This document shows, in pieces, positions 4,244 through 20,274 of a stretch of DNA of 35,743 nt; positions within the stretch are counted from its first letter, which is position 1, and every line of letters starts with the position of its first letter. The position numbers and the translations under genes were made by a program. Below the pieces are notes generated by a model, which was not told where the DNA came from, searched no databases, and saw nothing but the letters and a program-made list of their open reading frames with translations. Source of the DNA: Asterionella formosa (lineage: Eukaryota); the NCBI GenBank assembly GCA_002256025.1, contig NKIB01000034.1, forward strand, positions 1 through 35,743, written 5' to 3'.

Positions 4244-4802
4244 GGTACCATGATCTAACAAAAATAATATCATTCTATCATGGCGACAGGTACCAGTACT
4301 AAACTACCCATCGAGATACGAGAATACATCATACATACGGTACCTGGTACCAAACTTGAATAATCGATACAACTGTTATTTGACTGAGGGAATACCAGCT
4401 CGTGGGTAAGAATATTGATCTAAGTAGGCTGGTACTCCTGGTACCTGGTACCTGGTAACAGATCCTCATCGGAACAATAATGAAAACTGCATGCAGAATC
4501 TTGATCATATGATTTCCAGCATACCGGTAAGCTGCATCCACATCGGGAGGTCGGTACCAGAAACCTTAGCTTACAGAATTCCGGAAGCAGATACTCTGAA
4601 TCTATCGAATATACCGGCGTGTAACGTATATGTTTGCCGGCCGTACAGGAAATATGTACAGATAATTCCAGTGCATATAATGCCAAAATGATATGACCCT
4701 AGTACCAGGTACCAGTACCAGGTACTGTATACCCGGTATGATATGCGGGTGCATCCATCTGTTATGTAACATGTATACCGCTATCGGTTCCAGGTCCCGG
4801 TA
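4244..4802. repeat. GGTACC-rich low-complexity tract upstream of the LOX-fusion gene
   Basis: Many GGTACC(A/T) and TACCGG units, e.g. ggtactcctggtacctggtacctggtaac (4431-4459) and gtaccaggtaccagtaccaggtac (about 4702-4725). Confidence 0.7.
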
Positions 4803-4838
4803 CTCATAATTACTAAACTGATACTCCTACTAATTACG

Positions 4839-7815
4839 ATGAATGTGCCGGATCCTTTCTTCATCGAGAATCGCTTCCAAAAGCCTGCAATCAAGAATAA
4901 CGGTGTGCGCTGGAGTGCCGCTTCCATTTTGTCGTTATTGGTCTTGATTGTAAGCTCGTATTCTCAATTTTCCAAGCTCAAACAAGTTCCTTATTGTCGC
5001 GCGACACAAAGATTTCTCGTCCCGACAACAAGCGCAAAGCCTTCTTCATCAGCTGTAGCCTTTATTCGAAAGCAGCTCACCAGCTCTTGTTACACTACCG
5101 GTACTCTCATAGAGCGCTACTACTCGCCTAAATCGGAAGAGATCGATTCGGGCACAAAGACAGAAGGATGCGGCAACAGCAATGATTATGCCTTGTGGCC
5201 CCTCGTGGGGTTTGCCGCTTCCACTTTTGGATCCTTCATTGGGATCATACTCGAGATAGGTCTTTTCCTTCATGGTGAGCAATTCAATTTCAGCTATTCA
5301 CCGATCTCGTCTTCTATTGTCAACATTAGGCGATTGGTCTATGCATTCATTGTCACAGCCACTGCCTTGACGACATTTGCGTTGACCATTGATCCAATTG
5401 GTTTTCCCCAGAGATATCTAGCATTTTCACTTTTTGCTTCATTTCTACTTGGATTCTTGACCACGGCTTTGTACTTTGATAAGGAGCCCACTGGAACATT
5501 TGCTCTTCTTGCGATAATCATGATTTCACAAGTGCTATGGATCTTTTCTAATGGAACTATCTTGGGAGGAGACGAAGCCACCTACTTTTTGAAATTTGGG
5601 GCGCTTTCTCATTTACTCAGAGATGCATTCTTCTTCCCGTCTACGCCTGAGTACTCCACCATTTACCATTTGCTTGCCTCCATCACGAGCTGGGTCATGT
5701 ACCATTCATTGGCCCTAGTGTGCAATGTGGATCCTACCTATACTGCCACCATAGCTCAAGCCTTAGTGCCAAATCAAGTCTTTGCTGTTTCCCTCATCGT
5801 GAGTTTCTTGGCTGGGCATGTGTTTATCCTCATGATCTCACGAGCGACATATCAAGCATGGAGGAGTATGACATCGTACATCTTATGGAGTTCTGTTTAT
5901 TTGTTGCTCCTCTCGGCACCTCGATTGAGACATCCTGTCAAGTTGAGTGAAGTGTACCGGGAACAAGTCATCAACCGTAGAGAAGTGCGACCGTATTCAG
6001 AACAACATAGTGCATACATGCCAAAACCACTTGGAATCCCAAGTATCAATGGGTAAGGAATGTTGGAGAAAATGAATGAATGGATTTACACCCGTTGAAG
6101 CGCTGTTTTGTCAATCACACCAAATTCAAACAGGAAACATCTCACTTGCTCTCAAATTTTTTAGTCCATTGCTTCTTTCAACAGTTGAGATCTTTGCTTC
6201 TATCCGTAAATTTCTCCATCTAGGTTTTGCCATAGTGGCGTTTCTCAACAATAAATTTCCACAAGCTGATGTGAATTACCCACTTAAATACAAGGAACGA
6301 ATGAAGGTGTGGGAAGATGGATCAAAGTATTTTCCGGCATCATTTTTTGGCCTGAATTGGAAAATGCCAAAAAAGACCAGGAAACTTCAAGCGACACCTC
6401 AACCCATGTTGGACGCCTATAAGGAAGGAAAATTATTAGCACACATGTGCCAGTATGGAGCTGGAAACAGCTTTCTCCGGCGGGCTGTAGAAAAAAACGA
6501 ATATCCATTTTTCAAGTTAGTTAAGAGAGGATCTGCATTCAATAGCCAGCACGGTCTTGTGCTAGACTTGAGCCAACTTGATCAATATGAGACAAAGACC
6601 GACTATGAGCCTTACGGTGGAATTGCTTTCTTTTTCATAAAAGACCGTGACCTTGTCACAAAGTGGGTGATAGAGCCAAGGTCCAAGTCAAAAACCGCCC
6701 AAGAGCCTTCGAGCGCCTCGTTTCGCCGTATTGAAGAAATGATCAGAGTCTCTCTCATATTCTGCATGACTGCTGGTAAGCACGTGGCGGAGGTTCACAT
6801 GGCATTGAACCTATTGGAAATTGCTCTCCATAATTCCTTCGACTACGATTTAAATCCACACTTTCAACCAGGAGATCAGTTCATTGCTCATCCATTCCGT
6901 TTGGTCTTATACATTCATCTATTTTCTCATGGTTTGATTTCTGAACTTCAAGTCTGCCATGTGCTTCAAGAAGGGGCAGTCTTAAACCAAGTCTTTGCCC
7001 TCACACACAATAGCATGTGTGAATACTTGACAAATGCATACGACAACTTCCGGTATGGTGAGGATGAAGACTTTGCAGAGCGCAGGTTGGCCATGCACCA
7101 GCTGCTACATTTGGATAGAGGGTTTCCGAGCTTCACGTGTGCACTCCAGTGGGAGCTCCAGTACCATGACATCTTTGAAACATATGCAAATTCAGTGGTA
7201 GGTGCCATGTATGCAAATGATAAAGACGTACGTGATGACGATGCCATGAGGAAGTTCGTCGCCAGCATAAGTAGTAAATTGGACGACAATAGAAGATACG
7301 GGACTAGCGAAAATGGCTACATGCAAACAAAGGCAGAGATCAAGAACTTTGTGAGTGACACAATCTTTCACATTATTGTAAAGCATCAACTTTACGGAAC
7401 AGATGGCTTGACTGGTATGTTGGATCCTCGCATCAACAGTTTTCAGATTCCTAAAGATGGTGGTCCTCCGGCAATTGATGAATGGAGATCCCTTGTTTTT
7501 GCGGCATTTGCCACAGCGCACCCCACTTTTTCCCTTCTCCTTCAGGATCAGATGGCGACACCAGTGCAATTGGGCGAGCCTATACTATCCGACCTCTTCA
7601 GAGATGCTACCCCAATCAACAGGAACCATTCCCGTCAAGACAAGGAAATGTTAATTACTAGACTCCGGGGAGCTTGGGATCAGATGCAGCTGGACCTTCG
7701 TAATAAAAACATCGAGTGGGAATACAAGGGAAGTGGTGAACGAGCTCAAAATGATGAAAATTACATGTATTGCCGTTGCCTTCCGGCTGAACTTCGCACT
7801 AGTGCTGGCTATTGA
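4839..7815 (+). CDS. Multi-pass membrane protein fused to a divergent lipoxygenase catalytic domain (about 954 aa, 2 exons)
   Basis: Exons 4839-6052 and 6165-7815. Intron 6053-6164 (GTAAGG...CTCAC...TTTTTTAG) joins the two long ORFs in frame. Exon 1 has about 8 hydrophobic helices. Exon 2 has lipoxygenase-type H-x4-H (HVAEVH, 6781-6798), downstream HPFRLVLYIH, and a third ligand motif IFHIIVKHQLYG (His at 7384), ordered and spaced like soybean LOX-1 H499/H504/H690. Confidence 0.75.
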
Positions 7816-7989
7816 TATCTCTGTTGATACAATTGCTGAATTAGTTACCAGAGAGGTGCTAATTTCATCATATCATGTAGAGAACATCTTCAAATCATAG
7901 CATTGTTCAGCACATAAATAGCTTGATTGTTGCAGTGGCAAAAACGGAAGAAGCGCGTTTGACATTGACTTTCAGAAGATCAATATGAC

Positions 7990-8050
7990 TTTTAGGAAAT
8001 TTTAGGAAACATACAGAAATTTAAGGAAATATCAGCACATTTCAGGAAAT
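7990..8050 (+). repeat. Short degenerate tandem repeat, unit about TTTAGGAAAT
   Basis: tttaggaaat, tttaggaaac, ttaaggaaat and ttcaggaaat recur at multiples of 10 bp. Possibly subterminal repeats of a decayed element. Confidence 0.5.
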
Positions 8051-14231: not shown

Positions 14232-17036
14232 TTATTGAGCCCTAACATTAACTGTCCATTCCGGAGGCATTTGGACTATGCCCGATATACTGTTTTTTGG
14301 GATACGATTGTAGATCTTCGGATGATGCTTGAAGAGCACCTCAAGAATGTCGGGATGGACTTGCCCATCGCGGCAACACATTTGAAAGGTTAATTTGGCC
14401 ATTTTCTCTTTTTCCTGTTTCATTTGCTCGTCGGCATCATTTCTGGGGTTGAATACCGTCAAAGCAGTACGGTAGGTGATATGATTTAGGGATATACCAA
14501 GGTTTTGCATTTCATTTAAGACTAGCAATGCCACCTTGATTGCGTCAGGAATATTATTTTGCCCACTTGTAAATGCACAAGCATTCAGAACCGCTGTGAA
14601 CGGAAAGACTGTGGGCTTCAGCATTTCATTTCCTGCTTGGTACGACTTGGCCATTTCCTCAAGGAGTTTCCATCCTAAGACCGCCTTGTCTGGTCTTGTG
14701 CTAGCTGCAATCGCTTGAATGACCGTTGTGTACGTTCTATTGTCTGGTGCAGCATTTACATTGCCGTTCGCATGCTCATCCTTCATTTCTTGTAGAATTG
14801 CAAGAGCCCTTTCGGGTTGATCTGCCTTGCTTCGCCACCATGCCGCAATAACATTTGTATATATTACACGATTCAACTTTTCGCCAGTATCTTGAAGTCG
14901 TCTTAACCAAGTTTCTGCTTTTTTGCCAGAGTCAGGATGCAAGGAATTTGCCCAAACATCTACAAGACTTGCATAACAAACTGCATCTGGCTTTATGTCG
15001 TACTCATCCTCCATGTGGCTTATAAGTCTTTCCGCTCGCTGGGGAGCATCCACTGCACGCGACAATGACCAAGCCTTGATGCACGATGTGTACACATGCG
15101 AATTCGGCAGCAAAGCTGGATTCCTTTGTGTATTTGCAGCATTCTCCATCTCCCACAGAATCTCTTCCCCCTTCTCTGCAGCTTCTACACTTCTTCCTTT
15201 ACTTAAAGCGTTAATGAGAGCACCATATACAACAGCATCTGCTTGGACATACTTCAAGCCTTTCATTCGTTCAAAGACACTCAATGCCTTCATTGGTGTG
15301 TTGGACCGCCCATAAGCACCTATAATGTTGGTATACATATCAATCCGAGGTTCGTACCATTCTTGATGTGTCTGGTTGTATTTCTCTTCCAATTCTTGCA
15401 ATAGCATATCGGCGTGATACGCGGCATCGGTTGCAAAGGATGTTGTCCACGCAGTAATAGCTGCTCCATAATGTGATGCTTGTGGAGGAAATCCTTCATC
15501 TGCCATGGTTAGTAGGACTTGATTGACACTTTGCAATGCATGAGGGTGGTTAATACTACGGACACATCGTGCTAAACCCCAAAGTACAAAGTTGTACGTT
15601 GCGTAGTTTGGTGTTACCATGTTTCTGCGTGCTTGGAAGGCTTCCCAAATGACAGGTACACGATCATAAGGGACTGCAGCAAGTACATGATTCCAACATC
15701 GTGTAAGCTCTGGATCAGTTGCCCCTCTTAGTTGATCAGTATCAAACAATGCCATGACGCGTTCCAATAAATTTTCACAATCGTTGGGTATATTCATCTT
15801 GGTCGCGTACAATAGTGTCAAACTGTACCATGAGATGGGAACTTGTTTGGATTGTTCCAATCGTCTATTTTCGGCCTTGTTGAAAAATTCAATGAGCCCC
15901 GGTTCCATTGTCCGACTCCACCTTTCAATAATCAAGGAATAATGATTGGCCCAGGGCAAATTATCCATGTTAAGAGCTGCTAGCATTGACAGGACAGGGA
16001 TGGCGCTATGCAGAATGGGGTCAACCTTTTGCTTATTTTGAGATTCATTGGATCGAAACAGAATGCTGAGATAGTCACTTGCAAGATACCCAATTAGTTT
16101 CGGTACATGATTTTTTGATTCTTCTAATTGATGTTCGACTGTCTCGTGTACCAGATTCGGTTGTTCCAAAAGTACCTGTATTTTGGCATACCATTCCATT
16201 CCTAATCTCCACTGCTTTGCTTTCAAGGCCCACCCAATGGCTCTAGCATATCCCCGAATATAGTGATATGATTGGTACGGTGTCCTTGTGTTTTCCCAGG
16301 CAGTGTCCATTCGACCCACGGTATGAATCATTTCTTCTCTCCAATTCAATGTTTCATACGTTCGTTCAAATCCCGCAGTCAACAAGGAATACGTCTCAAC
16401 CGTGGGGTTCATGTTCTCACGTTCCAAAAACGAGACAATATCCATCATGGCATCCATGGGAGGAGATCGGTGCGATCTGGTATATCCATCAAGTACCAAA
16501 TGAAAGGCTTGTAACGTTGGTGCGAGACTCAAATGTCCCCCCAACTTGCCCACCCACCTGTCCAGCACTAAGGCAGCCGTATGCCCTTGTCCTGTATGTA
16601 TGGCAAGCTTTTGAATCAATAGTAGAAAAGGTTGGCTCGTTTCGTACCGAACGGATGTTTCCATCCACCGGTCGACAAGCAATTGCATGTTGGACGCTGC
16701 TTCGGGAGCATCATGATGGAGCCAATCTGTCATCACGGCAAGGAGATCGACATTGGACATGCAGTCTTGTTCCAAGAGAACATGAGTTTGATCCAATAAT
16801 TGGTTGGTTTGAATGGAAATGAGTGAATCGATCTGCTTACTTTGATTGTCTCTACTGGTGGCAGTGGCAAAGGTTCGATGCGACACGACGGGAAGCGATG
16901 ATAACAGTCTCATCATTGTGCTACAATTCTTTAGAGCAGTAGATGGAGTCAACAACTGCCGCTGAATTTGCAGTACAATACGTTGATGAGCAGCAGCAGA
17001 TCGCTGCATTAGATATCGGGCATGGTGCTGTCTCAT
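14232..17036 (-). CDS. Pentatricopeptide repeat (PPR) protein, probably mitochondrial (934 aa)
   Basis: Intronless ORF with many PPR-like motifs (PNYATYNFVLWGLA, DAVVYGALINALSK, PNSHVYTSCIKAWS, PDAVCYASLVDVWA, PDNRTYTTVIQAIA). The Arg-rich, acid-free N-terminus ending RTFATA resembles a mitochondrial presequence. Confidence 0.92.
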   Translation of the reverse strand: MRQHHARYLMQRSAAAHQRIVLQIQRQLLTPSTALKNCSTMMRLLSSLPVVSHRTFATATSRDNQSKQIDSLISIQTNQLLDQTHVLLEQDCMSNVDLLAVMTDWLHHDAPEAASNMQLLVDRWMETSVRYETSQPFLLLIQKLAIHTGQGHTAALVLDRWVGKLGGHLSLAPTLQAFHLVLDGYTRSHRSPPMDAMMDIVSFLERENMNPTVETYSLLTAGFERTYETLNWREEMIHTVGRMDTAWENTRTPYQSYHYIRGYARAIGWALKAKQWRLGMEWYAKIQVLLEQPNLVHETVEHQLEESKNHVPKLIGYLASDYLSILFRSNESQNKQKVDPILHSAIPVLSMLAALNMDNLPWANHYSLIIERWSRTMEPGLIEFFNKAENRRLEQSKQVPISWYSLTLLYATKMNIPNDCENLLERVMALFDTDQLRGATDPELTRCWNHVLAAVPYDRVPVIWEAFQARRNMVTPNYATYNFVLWGLARCVRSINHPHALQSVNQVLLTMADEGFPPQASHYGAAITAWTTSFATDAAYHADMLLQELEEKYNQTHQEWYEPRIDMYTNIIGAYGRSNTPMKALSVFERMKGLKYVQADAVVYGALINALSKGRSVEAAEKGEEILWEMENAANTQRNPALLPNSHVYTSCIKAWSLSRAVDAPQRAERLISHMEDEYDIKPDAVCYASLVDVWANSLHPDSGKKAETWLRRLQDTGEKLNRVIYTNVIAAWWRSKADQPERALAILQEMKDEHANGNVNAAPDNRTYTTVIQAIAASTRPDKAVLGWKLLEEMAKSYQAGNEMLKPTVFPFTAVLNACAFTSGQNNIPDAIKVALLVLNEMQNLGISLNHITYRTALTVFNPRNDADEQMKQEKEKMAKLTFQMCCRDGQVHPDILEVLFKHHPKIYNRIPKNSISGIVQMPPEWTVNVRAQ

Positions 17037-17722
17037 GGTTGATGAAGATGAGTAAGGGGGTTAATCATAGCAATAGTATTACAGATACGACATGAAACAA
17101 CAAAATAAATTTTTATAGATATACCGGTATGCGGTATACGGTACCAGCCATTGTTTGTGTTTTTTCAATTTCTTGAAATGTTGTGCCGCAGGTACCGGTA
17201 GTGAAGTGATGTACCGGTATGTAAATAACATTATTTTCTTACCGGTAAACTTACCAGGCATTATAGGTACCTGTACCTGGTACCAGGTTTGATACTAATA
17301 CCCTCGCTATTAGATTTTGTATGGATGTCTCGTTTTTTCATATTCATATATTTATAAAAACATATACATATATCATTTACTTTTTCTAATTCACAGGTTT
17401 TGCTTTGTCCTCTCATTGATGCAAGTGATGAATATTTAGTTATTAAATAGTAAAAATCAATAAGTTCTTGTTCATTGGACCCCTGACTAAGAATGCAAAG
17501 GAGCTGTTTGGTCAGAGAAACTAGTATTGAAAATCGAAGGCCTAAGTGTGGGGGCAACAGTAATTAATGCATGCAAAAGACACTAGGTGGCATAACAAGT
17601 GTCACCTTGTGTAACGAGACCAGTCAACGAGTACATTGAACATCGAGACCCCTCCATTTTGTTTATAATTACCACCAGAAGAAAAAGGCAGGGAAATCCA
17701 TGAGATGCATGGGCAACATACC

Positions 17723-19714
17723 CTAATGAGAATGACCGCCATGACCCCCATGATGAAAATTGCCACTGCGGTGAGCGGCATGTTGAGCAGCAGCAACCCG
17801 TTCACGAATCGCATCGGGATCATACCCTTCATCATACAGTTGTCGTTGAAAATCATCGCTGAGAATTTCAAGACCTTCTCCGAGTGCTTTAAAGTTCTTC
17901 TCTGCTTGGGTCCGTTGCTCAGTTGTATACTTATTATTGCTCCACCTATCCGGGTGGTATTCCAGACATTTGATTTTGTACTGCTTCTTAATCTCTGCAA
18001 GAGACGCCAAGGACGACACTCCAAGCAAGGTATAGTAGTCAGGTCGATTTTGTTTACGGACAGCAAAATCGGCAAAGTCGTAGGCCTTGCGAATATTCTC
18101 ACTGTTGGATCCCCACCCTTTAAGCAAGTCGCTCAATTCCTCCCTCGCTTCTTCGTGTTTTCCTAGCCCATGGTAGGCTTTGCATTTGAGCAACCAGGCT
18201 TTTTCAAAATCATCTCTAGCATAAATCGCCAAGGAGCAATCCTTGAGAGCAGCTGAATAATTTTTTAGTCTCAAATAAACCTCTGCCCTTTCCGAATAAA
18301 GCATACTATATAGTGGGGCCTTGACAGGCAACGGATCACACTTGTCAATTGAATCCGTAAAGGCTTGTACAGCAATATCAAATTTGCGATTAAATACAGC
18401 GTTTCTGGCAGTCTGGACTGCCTCTTTCACCTGTTTGCATTGTTTCAGTGTCAGCTTGGCGCCAATACAGTCAGGATCAAAGCGGAGCGCTTCGCGCAAG
18501 AGCGATAGTCCATTGTCAAAGTCCCCCATCAAGTACATGCAATGACCACGTACTTGGTATCCTTCTGCACTTTGGTTGTCTCCACGAATAACTTGCAAAC
18601 TCAATCGCAGCGCAGAGTCAGTCAATCCCAACCCAAGATCTGCCTTGGCGGCTCCTAGAATAACACATGGGGCTTTTGTATCTCGCAAGAGTGCACCAAA
18701 CACAGCCTTGGCTGATGCGTAGTCTTGCTGTGTAATCATGAGATCCATGCCTCGTGCCATTTCATCTCTAATAGCAAATGCCTTTATTAGTTCCTTGACC
18801 AAGACTTGAGACTTTGGATTGATGGAACAAGCCTGTTCCAGACCTCTACATGCATCATCAAAGGATCCCAATTCCATCAACGCCTTGGTGCGTCGAACGT
18901 ATGCTTTTACATAGGTCGGGTCCAAGTCTATGGCCTTTTCACAATCTGACAACGCTTCTCGCCATGTTAAAAGTTGAATCCAAGCGGCAGCACGGTTAGC
19001 GTACAATGTCGCCAACAACGTTGTGGTCGAGGACGATGTGTCCCCTACTATCAGTACTTCAATTGCCTTGGAATACAAATCTCTCGCCTGTTCAAAGTTG
19101 GACGTTGCGAATTTGTCATTTGCCTCCACCTTGAATGATTCAGCGAGCGATAGGGGGGATCGATCCACAACAACAACAACATCATCATCATCATCCATCA
19201 CTTGGTCCGTGTCAGTATCATCATGTGCTACTGCACTACCGGTATCGGAATTGTCAATAGCGGCAACAGCATCCGACTGTGACGACAACGACGTTGTATG
19301 TGCTGTCGTTGAGACCAGATGGTCTTGCAAATCTCCATAGTCCCCAGTCCAGCGACATCCATGCCTTTGCTTCAAGGGACAACTGACTCTGATCCTGTTT
19401 AGGACACGATGTGCCACTGGTTGACATAGTTTCAACGACGACGCATAAATTGACCGGCTACCCACCATGGTGGTAGTGGTGGGACCATGGGACGCAGTCG
19501 CTCCATGAAACTCCAGGCTTTCGTTGCAGGTAGGACAGCGCTGTTGTTGTGACAATCGGGACAATAACCATGTTTCCAAGCATAGCTTACAAAACACGTG
19601 CGAACACTTTGTCGTTACCAGAGCATCGAGTCCGCAGAGCTGCTGGCAAATGGCACAGAGAAAGGCGCCGTAATGGCGTTCGTCAGAGAGTACATGATGG
19701 AGATCTAAACCCAT
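17723..19714 (-). CDS. RING finger + TRAF/SIAH-like zinc finger + TPR repeats + J-domain (DNAJC7-like co-chaperone fusion, 663 aa)
   Basis: C3HC4 RING (CAIC...CSHVFCKLC...CPTC), then CPLKQRHGCRWTG...DHL. TPR motifs include LYANRAAAWIQL and KAYVRRTKALMELG. C-terminal J-domain DYYTLLGV...YHPDRW has an intact HPD. Confidence 0.92.
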   Translation of the reverse strand: MGLDLHHVLSDERHYGAFLCAICQQLCGLDALVTTKCSHVFCKLCLETWLLSRLSQQQRCPTCNESLEFHGATASHGPTTTTMVGSRSIYASSLKLCQPVAHRVLNRIRVSCPLKQRHGCRWTGDYGDLQDHLVSTTAHTTSLSSQSDAVAAIDNSDTGSAVAHDDTDTDQVMDDDDDVVVVVDRSPLSLAESFKVEANDKFATSNFEQARDLYSKAIEVLIVGDTSSSTTTLLATLYANRAAAWIQLLTWREALSDCEKAIDLDPTYVKAYVRRTKALMELGSFDDACRGLEQACSINPKSQVLVKELIKAFAIRDEMARGMDLMITQQDYASAKAVFGALLRDTKAPCVILGAAKADLGLGLTDSALRLSLQVIRGDNQSAEGYQVRGHCMYLMGDFDNGLSLLREALRFDPDCIGAKLTLKQCKQVKEAVQTARNAVFNRKFDIAVQAFTDSIDKCDPLPVKAPLYSMLYSERAEVYLRLKNYSAALKDCSLAIYARDDFEKAWLLKCKAYHGLGKHEEAREELSDLLKGWGSNSENIRKAYDFADFAVRKQNRPDYYTLLGVSSLASLAEIKKQYKIKCLEYHPDRWSNNKYTTEQRTQAEKNFKALGEGLEILSDDFQRQLYDEGYDPDAIRERVAAAQHAAHRSGNFHHGGHGGHSH

Positions 19715-20274
19715 AATGATGAGGGGAATTATTAGTATATGTAATTATTTATATATATTGCCTTGCTCTTGTTTTTGTTTGAGGTTTGCTGTTGCTTGTC
19801 AATCTATAGATTCTAATAAAATAAAGTACAGGTATCTTAGACATGTATTGTTATTTGCCCTTGCGCTTGATGTGGATGAATCATCTCTGTGTCCTGCGTC
19901 TCAGCACATCTCTCAGAATTAAATACCGGGTATATATATTGCTTACTGGTTTAGTCGGCCGGAGTATCTAATAATATAATTCTGAACCGATAAATTAATA
20001 ATAAATATAGTGCACAGATGAATATTTCAAATTAGTGCAATACCACTATATATATAGTGATAGCAGGAGTACCGGTACTAGTACCACTTTCTGTGCTGGC
20101 AATCCCCACCCTGTTTTAGCTTTTGTCTTGCTTTACGATGAGAACTGTGGGAGTCTAAGTAATTTTTGGTATCTCTGAGTAACTTCTATTCGGGGCCATA
20201 TCATTGCACGGTGGATTTTTTGGCAGTCAATTTTCTTTTGGTTTGAGCAGGGACCATCAAGCATCCTCCCACCT

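Follow-up and report, generated by a model that had tools for sequence, protein, structure and literature searches.

A spliced gene of Asterionella formosa joins a polytopic membrane domain to a predicted, highly divergent lipoxygenase fold

Contig NKIB01000034.1 of Asterionella formosa (Eukaryota; GenBank assembly GCA_002256025.1), of which we analyzed positions 1 to 35,743, referred to here as the window, carries two long reading frames in close succession, the first encoding a polytopic membrane protein and the second a protein that resembles a lipoxygenase. Every lipoxygenase structure matched in this analysis is soluble or peripheral, and to our knowledge no integral-membrane lipoxygenase is known; how lipoxygenases reach membrane-buried substrates is an open question. 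The locus raises the question of whether the two frames form a single gene and, if so, whether its product is a lipoxygenase-like enzyme built into a membrane. A preliminary description of the sequence had proposed such a product, with a lipoxygenase domain placed behind roughly eight membrane helices.

Gene structure and splicing

The two frames lie on the + strand at positions 4770..6056 (first ATG at 4839) and 6076..7815. A 112-nucleotide (nt) intron in phase 2 can be read at the junction (6053..6164), opening with GT at 6053-6054 and closing with AG at 6163-6164. Its excision joins GG to T in a Gly codon, after which the second frame reads on; the resulting coding sequence, join(4839..6052, 6165..7815) on the + strand, comprises 954 codons and specifies a protein of 954 residues. 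Given that the second frame has an ATG of its own at 6076, right behind a TGA, the sequence alone left open whether there are two genes.

The sequence of the window is present in public RNA, with seven runs containing at least half of the sampled words; these are lake or freshwater metatranscriptomes and one polyA 'algae' transcriptome. Four of four RNA runs, from four studies (X2, X5, X6, and X7), contained a single joint at the locus, reported as 'skips 112, GT..AG', in agreement with the phase-compatible intron that the preliminary description had placed between the frames. A 3085-nt contig (X2 record 4) consists of 4782-6051 plus 6164-7944 and holds both frames within one spliced molecule, and a 1548-nt contig (X6 record 13) consists of 5358-6051 plus 6164-7017; the 6052/6165 junction postulated earlier is hence present in a single messenger RNA that runs across both frames. 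The RNA contigs start at 4782-4826 and end at 7944 (X2) or 8033 (X5 and X7), which indicates short untranslated regions, and the lack of any joint other than the 112-nt skip among them indicates a single intron. Since this evidence consists of assembled contigs rather than raw reads, it shows presence, not proportions.

One 171-nt contig of X7 (6023-6193, depth 7.6) is unspliced through the intron and may represent precursor RNA, DNA carry-over, or a minor retained form. An intron-retaining message, if translated, would stop at the TAA at 6054-6056 and yield the membrane domain alone. An alternative acceptor, the AG at 6132-6133, was also considered; the corresponding 81-nt intron was rejected, since the frame behind it meets a stop in the space of 30 codons and none of the RNA joints fits it.

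Homologous proteins support the joined frames independently of the RNA. The first frame is collinear with the N-termini of the relatives P0007 (E 5e-25) and P0015 (E 1e-31) up to the end of the exon, and such collinear full-length homologues exclude chance as the explanation for the joined frames. Moreover, the distance from the junction motif to a downstream P-Q-A-D motif is 35 residues in the spliced protein of the window and 34 in the uninterrupted P0007. We are highly confident that the locus is one spliced and transcribed gene with a membrane plus lipoxygenase-fold architecture.

Predicted architecture and candidate metal site

AlphaFold modeling of the C-terminal half, based on 27 sequences, gave a predicted local distance difference test score (pLDDT) of 83.9 and a predicted template modeling score (pTM) of 0.87. 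A Foldseek search of the Protein Data Bank (PDB) with this model returned 132 chains at E <= 0.001, and all matches listed are lipoxygenases; the best was Pa-LOX (5lc8; E 3.2e-11, probability 1.00), and template modeling scores were 0.55-0.61. With VIA-align (VIA), 132 of 991 chains reached Z >= 8, and the best 50 listed were all lipoxygenases (Z 20.7-25.1), led by a complex of Pseudomonas aeruginosa lipoxygenase with phospholipid (4g33; Z 25.1, root-mean-square deviation 3.4 A, 419 of 549 residues). In a feature search of the ESM Atlas, 30 of 30 clusters carried the lipoxygenase family PF00305 (top score 0.97), and the 'recognition' value for the query was low.

Sequence comparisons are weakly supportive of the same relationship. 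Against PDB sequences, the C-terminal half as a single sequence matched only ALOX15B (E = 1), with V-K-H of the window opposite A-K-H of the ligand helix, and 14 of the 16 matches of the family profile at E <= 10 were lipoxygenases (best 0.0094, in two collinear stretches). Comparison by hhalign with the two canonical bacterial lipoxygenases found in genomes that carry this family gave a probability of 76.6% (E 2.1e-5, 163 columns), rising to 83.2% (E 8.8e-6, 219 columns) with 16 canonical lipoxygenases; H-P-F-R of the family is set against H-P-V/L-Y of lipoxygenases, and the invariant His that follows against their P-H. The models therefore point to the lipoxygenase catalytic fold for the C-terminal domain (about 550 residues), as the preliminary description had assigned to this half, in a very divergent form that is not recognized by profile.

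The ligand set of lipoxygenases is His-His-His-Asn-Ile, in which the carboxylate of the terminal Ile binds iron. We assessed conservation in alignment A2 (27 rows, C-terminal half) and in alignments A3 (28 rows) and A5 (13 rows), which include the membrane part. The columns that are invariant across A2, numbered within the C-terminal half, comprise K-H-x4-H (H206 and H211), H242-P, H251, H255, H402, H407-x-x-Y-G-T, and a terminal Y or F. The K-H-x4-H motif falls in a long central helix of the model (C-half residues 184-213) and has the same spacing as the H-x4-H of lipoxygenases, and HMMER sets H407 opposite the third ligand, a ligand-helix His of ALOX15B. H402 is replaced by Cys in the divergent branch P0087/P0100, so that it is unlikely to act as an essential ligand.

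The C-terminal end of the chain also appears to be retained. Complete family rows all end in G/S-x-G/A-Y or F, and the segment L-P-S plus eight residues to the chain end has the same length in the family as in a canonical lipoxygenase of Litoribacillus peritrichatus. In the VIA superpositions, the last residue but one of 4g33 (684), 3d3l (662), 2p0m (662), and soybean LOX-1 (1fgq; 838) lies opposite model residue 548, which would place the terminal Tyr where lipoxygenases have their terminal Ile. Judged from these alignments, the metal site is probably kept in part, with most of the ligand scaffold in place as candidate ligands.

The N-terminal half, modeled on 28 sequences, showed nine helices of 21-29 residues (pLDDT 81.7; pTM 0.75). 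It is thus polytopic, as described previously, with one helix more in the model than the rough count of eight. A disordered insert (residues 50-119) lies between helices 1 and 2; it measures 70 residues in the window against a mean of 19.5 over the 28 rows, and is far shorter or absent in most bacterial rows. With VIA, residues ~16-300 superposed on seven-transmembrane (7TM) bundles at Z 13-16 and 4-11% identity, a Z range that is common for any helical bundle according to the tool's own note. Among the matches, a designed protein resembling G-protein-coupled receptors (GPCRs) scored Z 16.1, microbial rhodopsins scored 15.4, and many GPCRs fell at 13-15; for adiponectin receptor 2, whose structure contains a C18 fatty acid (5lx9), Z was 14.3 (root-mean-square deviation 3.5, 216 residues, the second-largest aligned length listed).

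No closer relative of this half emerged: Foldseek gave no match at E <= 0.001, PDB sequences gave none at E <= 10, the ESM Atlas gave no usable match, the model contains no beta-barrel, and Pfam gave no PLAT match. Hits to MalF_N_TM in Pfam (E 0.012, below the cut-off) and to CrcB in NCBIfam (E 0.72) were taken as noise. On this modeling, the N-terminal half is best described as a seven-helix bundle plus two helices, with no specific relative.

Its conserved polar residues are E139 in helix 2, R164 in helix 3, S273-x3-H277 in helix 7, and R342 in helix 9. Residues of the zinc site of the adiponectin receptor family (PAQR) and of the retinal-Lys signature are not among the invariant columns, no closer check of those signatures having been made. 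The preliminary description had suggested that His-containing motifs of this half (SHLLRD and STIYH...MYH) might bind metal or haem. STIYH proved to be conserved, but the His residues of SHLLRD and MYH are not; with two of the three His residues variable, a haem or metal site built from these motifs was rejected, and nothing indicates haem in the membrane part.

The linker between the two domains (5988-6050; A3 columns ~455-497) is among the best conserved parts of the protein, and may be structurally part of the lipoxygenase-like domain rather than a passive tether. The membrane domain, for its part, has a history of its own. Its profile found only 78 proteins at E <= 0.001 among 1.84 billion representatives, and these fall into four groups. 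The first consists of fragments and full fusions, including divergent ones that end P-G-S-A-Y, L-G-T-M-Y, or I-G-A-A-Y, and the second of frames that resemble exon 1 and end just past the domain junction. The third comprises stand-alone proteins of ~270-278 residues (P0073, P0077, P0080, P0084, and P0092; E 3e-16 to 3e-7), none of which was matched by Pfam; in P0073, P0080, and P0092, the three that were read, the conserved Glu and Arg are present, and P0073 and P0080, in which S273-x3-H277 is also kept, show a clear S/T-x3-H motif. The fourth is a single 933-residue protein, P0071, in which the module runs to helix 8 and is followed by a cyclic-nucleotide phosphodiesterase (PF00233, E 3.3e-27); as a single database representative, it may be a merged gene model. 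Occurrence of the module both alone and with a phosphodiesterase indicates that it is an evolutionary unit of its own.

Two observations bear on topology. Over the 28 sequences, the number of Lys plus Arg per loop alternates between the side of the N-terminus (5.25, 1.82, 0.46, 1.11, and 1.25) and the other side (1.61, 0.82, 0.18, and 0.93). In P0071, the phosphodiesterase that follows helix 8 argues that this point is cytosolic, and a ninth transmembrane helix would then carry the lipoxygenase-like domain out of the cytoplasm. Together, these features suggest a cytosolic N-terminus and a lipoxygenase-like domain on the far side of the membrane; this is the weakest step of the interpretation.

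Table 1. Features of the Asterionella formosa gene, with positions in the window.
Feature	Position	Strand	Basis or remark
Exon 1, with start codon, membrane domain, and conserved linker (residues 1-404 and two bases of the Gly405 codon)	4839..6052	+	First in-frame ATG after the stop at 4767-4769
N-terminal R-F-Q-x-P motif, in exon 1			Aligned with bacterial homologues
Nine predicted membrane helices	4905..5915	+	Residues 23-49, 120-144, 155-183, 190-213, 218-238, 244-264, 270-297, 313-333, 335-359
Glu139, helix 2	5253..5255	+	Invariant: 28/28 A3 rows, 13/13 A5 rows
S273-x3-H277 (STIYH), start of helix 7	5655..5669	+	S273 invariant, H277 in 27/28 A3 rows
Linker between membrane and lipoxygenase-like domains, ~45 residues	5916..6052	+	Invariant P366, Y386, H390, P401 (A3); two short strands predicted
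Intron, 112 nt, GT..AG, phase 2, at the domain junction	6053..6164	+	RNA joint in 4/4 runs
Exon 2, predicted lipoxygenase-fold domain (residues 405-954) and TGA stop	6165..7815	+	AlphaFold model, Foldseek, VIA
K-H-x4-H, His611 and His616 (C-half H206, H211)	6781..6798	+	27/27 A2 rows; candidate ligands 1 and 2
H-x-x-Y-G, His812 (C-half H407)	7384..7398	+	Invariant in A2; candidate ligand 3
C-terminal tail L-P-x(8)-Y; chain end Tyr954 fixed family-wide	7780..7812	+	Alignments and structural alignment
3' untranslated region	7816..8033	+	RNA contig ends at 7944 (X2) and 8033 (X5, X7)

Elsewhere in the window, other long frames encode a pentatricopeptide-repeat protein (14235-17060, - strand) and a RING-TPR-DnaJ protein (17726-19744, - strand). 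With these two genes and a spliceosomal intron, the window is eukaryotic nuclear DNA. Upstream of the gene, at 4690-4800, 150 nt are rich in short repeats resembling GGTACC or CCAGGTAC. The X2 transcript contig has a 7-nt insertion (GGTACCT) after 4798, and pieces of 18-23 nt from very high-depth X2 RNA contigs map to 4438-4457 and 4702-4724.

Relatives, genomic context, and candidate function

A search with the C-terminal half returned 29 relatives, of which 17 are 813-932 residues long; the Pfam field is empty for all 29. One of them, P0001, is 97% identical and was predicted by gene callers as a 579-residue protein. A scan of prokaryotes, with one genome per species, located 38 loci. They come from Saprospiraceae, Aureispira, Lewinella, Chitinophagales, Moritella, Oleispira, Litoribacillus, Litoribrevibacter, Marinicella, and Saccharospirillaceae, as well as from Polyangiales, Pirellulaceae, Gemmata, Stieleria, Acidobacteriota, one Chloroflexota bin, and one bin labelled Thermoplasmatota. 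At 34 of the 38, the match begins within the first 70 residues of the 843-residue query, indicating that the whole fusion is encoded at one locus, and every locus with frames listed holds the fusion as one uninterrupted frame, except for L023 with five stops in its translation. Three of the 38 loci are truncated by contig ends, and at L029 (6001-8567, Pirellulaceae bin), which adjoins an IS66 transposase fragment, the match covers only query residues 343-843 and leaves the membrane domain unmatched. The Thermoplasmatota locus, L011, lies on a 4.4-kb contig of an archaeal bin, is identical to P0012 over the C-terminal 500 residues, and groups with bacteria in the tree; an artefact of binning or a transfer may account for it.

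A quick maximum-likelihood tree was built from 64 C-terminal domains, leaving out L014 and L023 for X or stops in their translations; in it, the protein of the window falls in a 12-row clade without labelled bacterial loci, and a 52-row clade takes in all of the latter; both clades have a Shimodaira-Hasegawa-like approximate likelihood ratio test (SH-aLRT) value of 100. Eight relatives (P0032, P0033, P0038, P0044, P0045, P0046, P0050, and P0051) have database frames that end two to three residues past the same (I/V)-P-x-(I/V) junction, as a prokaryote-style gene caller stops when an intron follows. On this pattern, the intron at the domain boundary appears to be conserved within the clade of the window. 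The distribution shows that the fusion is old, with what is predicted to be the same three-part protein in marine bacteria of several phyla.

The bacterial neighborhoods connect the family with lipid hydrolysis. Among the 132 proteins encoded by the two nearest frames on each side of the 38 loci, a patatin adjoins 13 loci (L001-L008, L010, L014, L015, L022, and L023) and a Lipase_3 protein adjoins six (L017, L018, L019, L021, L025, and L027). A lipase is thus found next to 19 of the 38 loci, and in 18 of these it lies directly downstream on the same strand; the gaps that were checked measure 3-79 nt. These 19 loci belong to Bacteroidota, Pseudomonadota, Acidobacteriota, and a Chloroflexota bin; as several are closely related, they do not represent 19 independent events. 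Two loci of Oceanospirillales type (L016 and L030) have an AraC regulator and a PEBP-family gene upstream, with glyoxalase-fold and DJ-1/PfpI genes downstream on the opposite strand, and two others (L031 and L038) have a dienelactone-hydrolase-family gene upstream; among the nearest frames of the remaining loci, nothing lipid-related was found. PfaA, the large subunit of polyunsaturated-fatty-acid synthase, scored over the curated cut-off in 5 of 10 carrier genomes compared to 0 of 14 controls. Two of five carrier genomes also encode a canonical lipoxygenase detected by PF00305, namely Litoribacillus peritrichatus (L039, 698 residues, genome G002) and Moritella sp. JT01 (L040, 551 residues, genome G003).

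We consider it probable, although well short of certain, that the protein is a membrane-integrated oxygenase of the lipoxygenase superfamily that acts on lipids; the gene structure is observed, and we infer catalysis, the metal, and the topology. In this model, the C-terminal domain would be a metal-dependent oxygenase whose metal is bound by the two His residues of H-x4-H, by the invariant His farther along the chain, and by the carboxylate of the strictly placed C-terminal Tyr or Phe, and the Gly in place of the Asn ligand would leave an extra position that is open or filled by water. As its substrate, the enzyme would take a polyunsaturated acyl chain out of the membrane; in bacteria this could be a fatty acid released by the acyl hydrolase encoded next door, the alternative being an esterified lipid. 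The membrane domain would anchor the enzyme within the bilayer and probably direct the lipid to it via E139, R164, S273-x3-H277, and R342. In a more elaborate and speculative version, which we rate as unlikely, the 7TM-like domain passes the acyl chain or freed fatty acid across the membrane to an extracytoplasmic domain with a site of three His residues and the terminal Tyr carboxylate. If true, such a membrane machine would explain part of algal oxylipin production where canonical lipoxygenase genes are scarce.

Several observations weigh against a lipid oxygenase of this kind. Profiles do not recognize the C-terminal half: PF00305 leaves the protein of the window unmatched even at E <= 1, NCBIfam gives no match, and in the five carrier genomes PF00305 missed the family's own loci while finding the canonical enzymes in two. 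The registers obtained from sequence disagree as well. The hhalign comparison sets the H-x4-H motif one five-residue step off the canonical pair, with H206 opposite the second lipoxygenase His, and stops two residues short of H407 in a register shifted by four relative to HMMER, so that ligand equivalence is predicted only. In addition, four residues past H407 the family has an invariant Gly at the position that Asn, His, or Ser occupies in lipoxygenases, and its chains end in Tyr or Phe, not Ile or Val. The name lipoxygenase given to this half in the preliminary description therefore holds for the predicted fold and for part of the ligand set, but not for detection by PF00305 or for the Asn ligand position. 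The match of the membrane domain to generic 7TM bundles only makes its lipid-guiding role a conjecture. With regard to topology, 10 of 11 patatin neighbors have the patatin motif at about residue 8-30 with no preceding hydrophobic signal segment, and the class-3 lipase neighbors have no obvious signal peptide; the hydrolase neighbors are therefore probably cytosolic, which is awkward with an extracytoplasmic lipoxygenase-like domain. Finally, 19 of the 38 loci have no lipase neighbor, and 5 of the 10 carriers have no PfaA over the cut-off in a comparison whose 14 controls are model organisms rather than matched marine species. A further hhalign run with a loose alignment threshold reached both ends of the domain and lined up the C-terminal tails; its confidence was low and its third-His region implausible, and it was not used for the ligands.

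With a changed ligand sphere, and with the fold and part of the metal site retained, the lipoxygenase-fold domain might serve another chemistry, for example, that of a hydroperoxide isomerase, a hydroperoxide lyase, or an epoxyalcohol synthase, or the oxygenation of a lipid other than a fatty acid. Epidermal LOX3 is an example of enzymes with the lipoxygenase fold whose substrates are hydroperoxides and not fatty acids. The invariant Gly and the terminal Tyr or Phe would suit such an enzyme, as would the failure of PF00305 to detect the domain; since two of five carriers retain a canonical lipoxygenase beside the family member, there is no need for the two proteins to be redundant. However, the family keeps the H-x4-H pair, the third His, and the fixed C-terminus without variation, and the lipase neighbors suit an ordinary supply of fatty acids equally well, without separating dioxygenation from later steps. 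We regard a different chemistry as possible, but improbable on present evidence.

A second alternative treats the protein as a signaling device, in which the 7TM domain is a sensor or receptor and the lipoxygenase-fold domain its ligand-binding or output part. The superposition of helices 1-7 on GPCR, rhodopsin, and adiponectin-receptor bundles is compatible with this, as are the occurrence of the module alone (~270 residues) and its fusion to a phosphodiesterase in P0071, but Z scores of 13-16 are common for any helical bundle, P0071 is a lone and perhaps merged gene model, and the conserved His set and operon link to lipases favor catalysis on lipids; we find this explanation distinctly unlikely. 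Least credible of all, with hardly any probability left to it, is a pair of genes consisting of a membrane protein that ends at the TAA at 6054-6056 and a soluble lipoxygenase-like protein that starts at the ATG at 6076, since this ATG directly after a stop and 19 nt behind the stop of the first frame, the 579-residue prediction for P0001, and the lone unspliced contig are outweighed by spliced contigs in four of four runs (one spanning 4782-7944), by a junction spacing within one residue of that in P0007, and by the single frame of the fusion in 34 of 38 bacterial loci. We therefore retain a membrane-integrated oxygenase of lipids as the preferred interpretation.

Comparison with known lipoxygenases and membrane proteins

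The closest known structures are bacterial lipoxygenases without a PLAT domain, e.g., those of P. aeruginosa (4g33, 5ir4, and 5lc8) and Cyanothece CspLOX2 (5med). They share the predicted fold of the window's C-terminal half (Z 24.3-25.1 over 417-448 residues) at 12-14% identity, and would also have in common with it the H-x4-H of the central helix, H-P-x-x-L-L followed by a His, a later His, and a C-terminus buried at the same place. The phospholipid complex 4g33 provides a precedent within the fold for action on membrane lipids. In contrast, these enzymes are soluble or peripheral with a helical lid or short N-terminal extension, where the family of the window has a nine-helix integral membrane domain, and they are found by PF00305 whereas this family is not. 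Their ligand set, His-His-His-Asn-Ile, is also altered, with Gly for Asn and Tyr or Phe as the last residue. Eukaryotic PLAT-lipoxygenases differ in a similar manner, carrying an N-terminal PLAT beta-barrel where the N-terminal half of the window's protein (404 residues) is predicted to form nine helices.

A C-terminal lipoxygenase in a two-domain protein is known from the coral allene oxide synthase-lipoxygenase (3dy5; fold match Z 23.3). Its partner is a soluble catalase-like haem enzyme that acts on the lipoxygenase product, whereas the partner in the window is a polytopic membrane domain with no haem signature. The seven-helix bundle of the PAQR adiponectin receptor (5lx9) superposes with the N-terminal half of the window's protein (Z 14.3), but the two are unrelated in sequence (8% identity), the fit is not superior to that with GPCRs, rhodopsins, or a designed 7TM protein, and the family of the window has two helices more. 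The zinc site of PAQR proteins is formed by three His and one Asp, and it has no counterpart among the invariant residues of the window family.

According to a survey by Giordano et al. (2024; PMC10968607), diatom lipoxygenases are proposed to start algal oxylipin synthesis, and their fourth ligand varies, with His, Gln, or Ser replacing Asn. That work considered 45 sequences of ~700-740 residues, chosen for a recognizable lipoxygenase domain and no fewer than three out of five coordination residues, and noted that only three diatom proteins were annotated as lipoxygenase; no membrane fusion is described in the main text, in which the word 'membrane' occurs 0 times. Our literature searches, which did not extend to subscription-only papers, turned up no report of an integral membrane domain joined to a lipoxygenase, and neither 'transmembrane lipoxygenase' nor 'integral membrane lipoxygenase' occurred as an exact phrase in any of the matches listed. 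This agrees with the preliminary description, whose author did not recognize the architecture; it is conserved in relatives and unmatched in Pfam and NCBIfam. Being unmatched there, the family is missed by profile-based lipoxygenase surveys in bacteria and algae alike, and in algae the genetic basis of oxylipin signaling is incomplete.

Set beside these systems, the protein belongs by its predicted fold to the lipoxygenase superfamily and represents a new family within it, one whose architecture is new and whose ligand set is altered. The family spans marine bacteria, where it is operon-linked to acyl hydrolases, and a separate clade that includes this eukaryotic gene. Its ligand sphere, with Gly for Asn and a terminal Tyr or Phe, is of interest for the chemistry of non-haem metal sites. 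A conserved and expressed lipoxygenase fold, covalently tied to a polytopic membrane domain, would offer a natural system for membrane-coupled lipid oxygenation.

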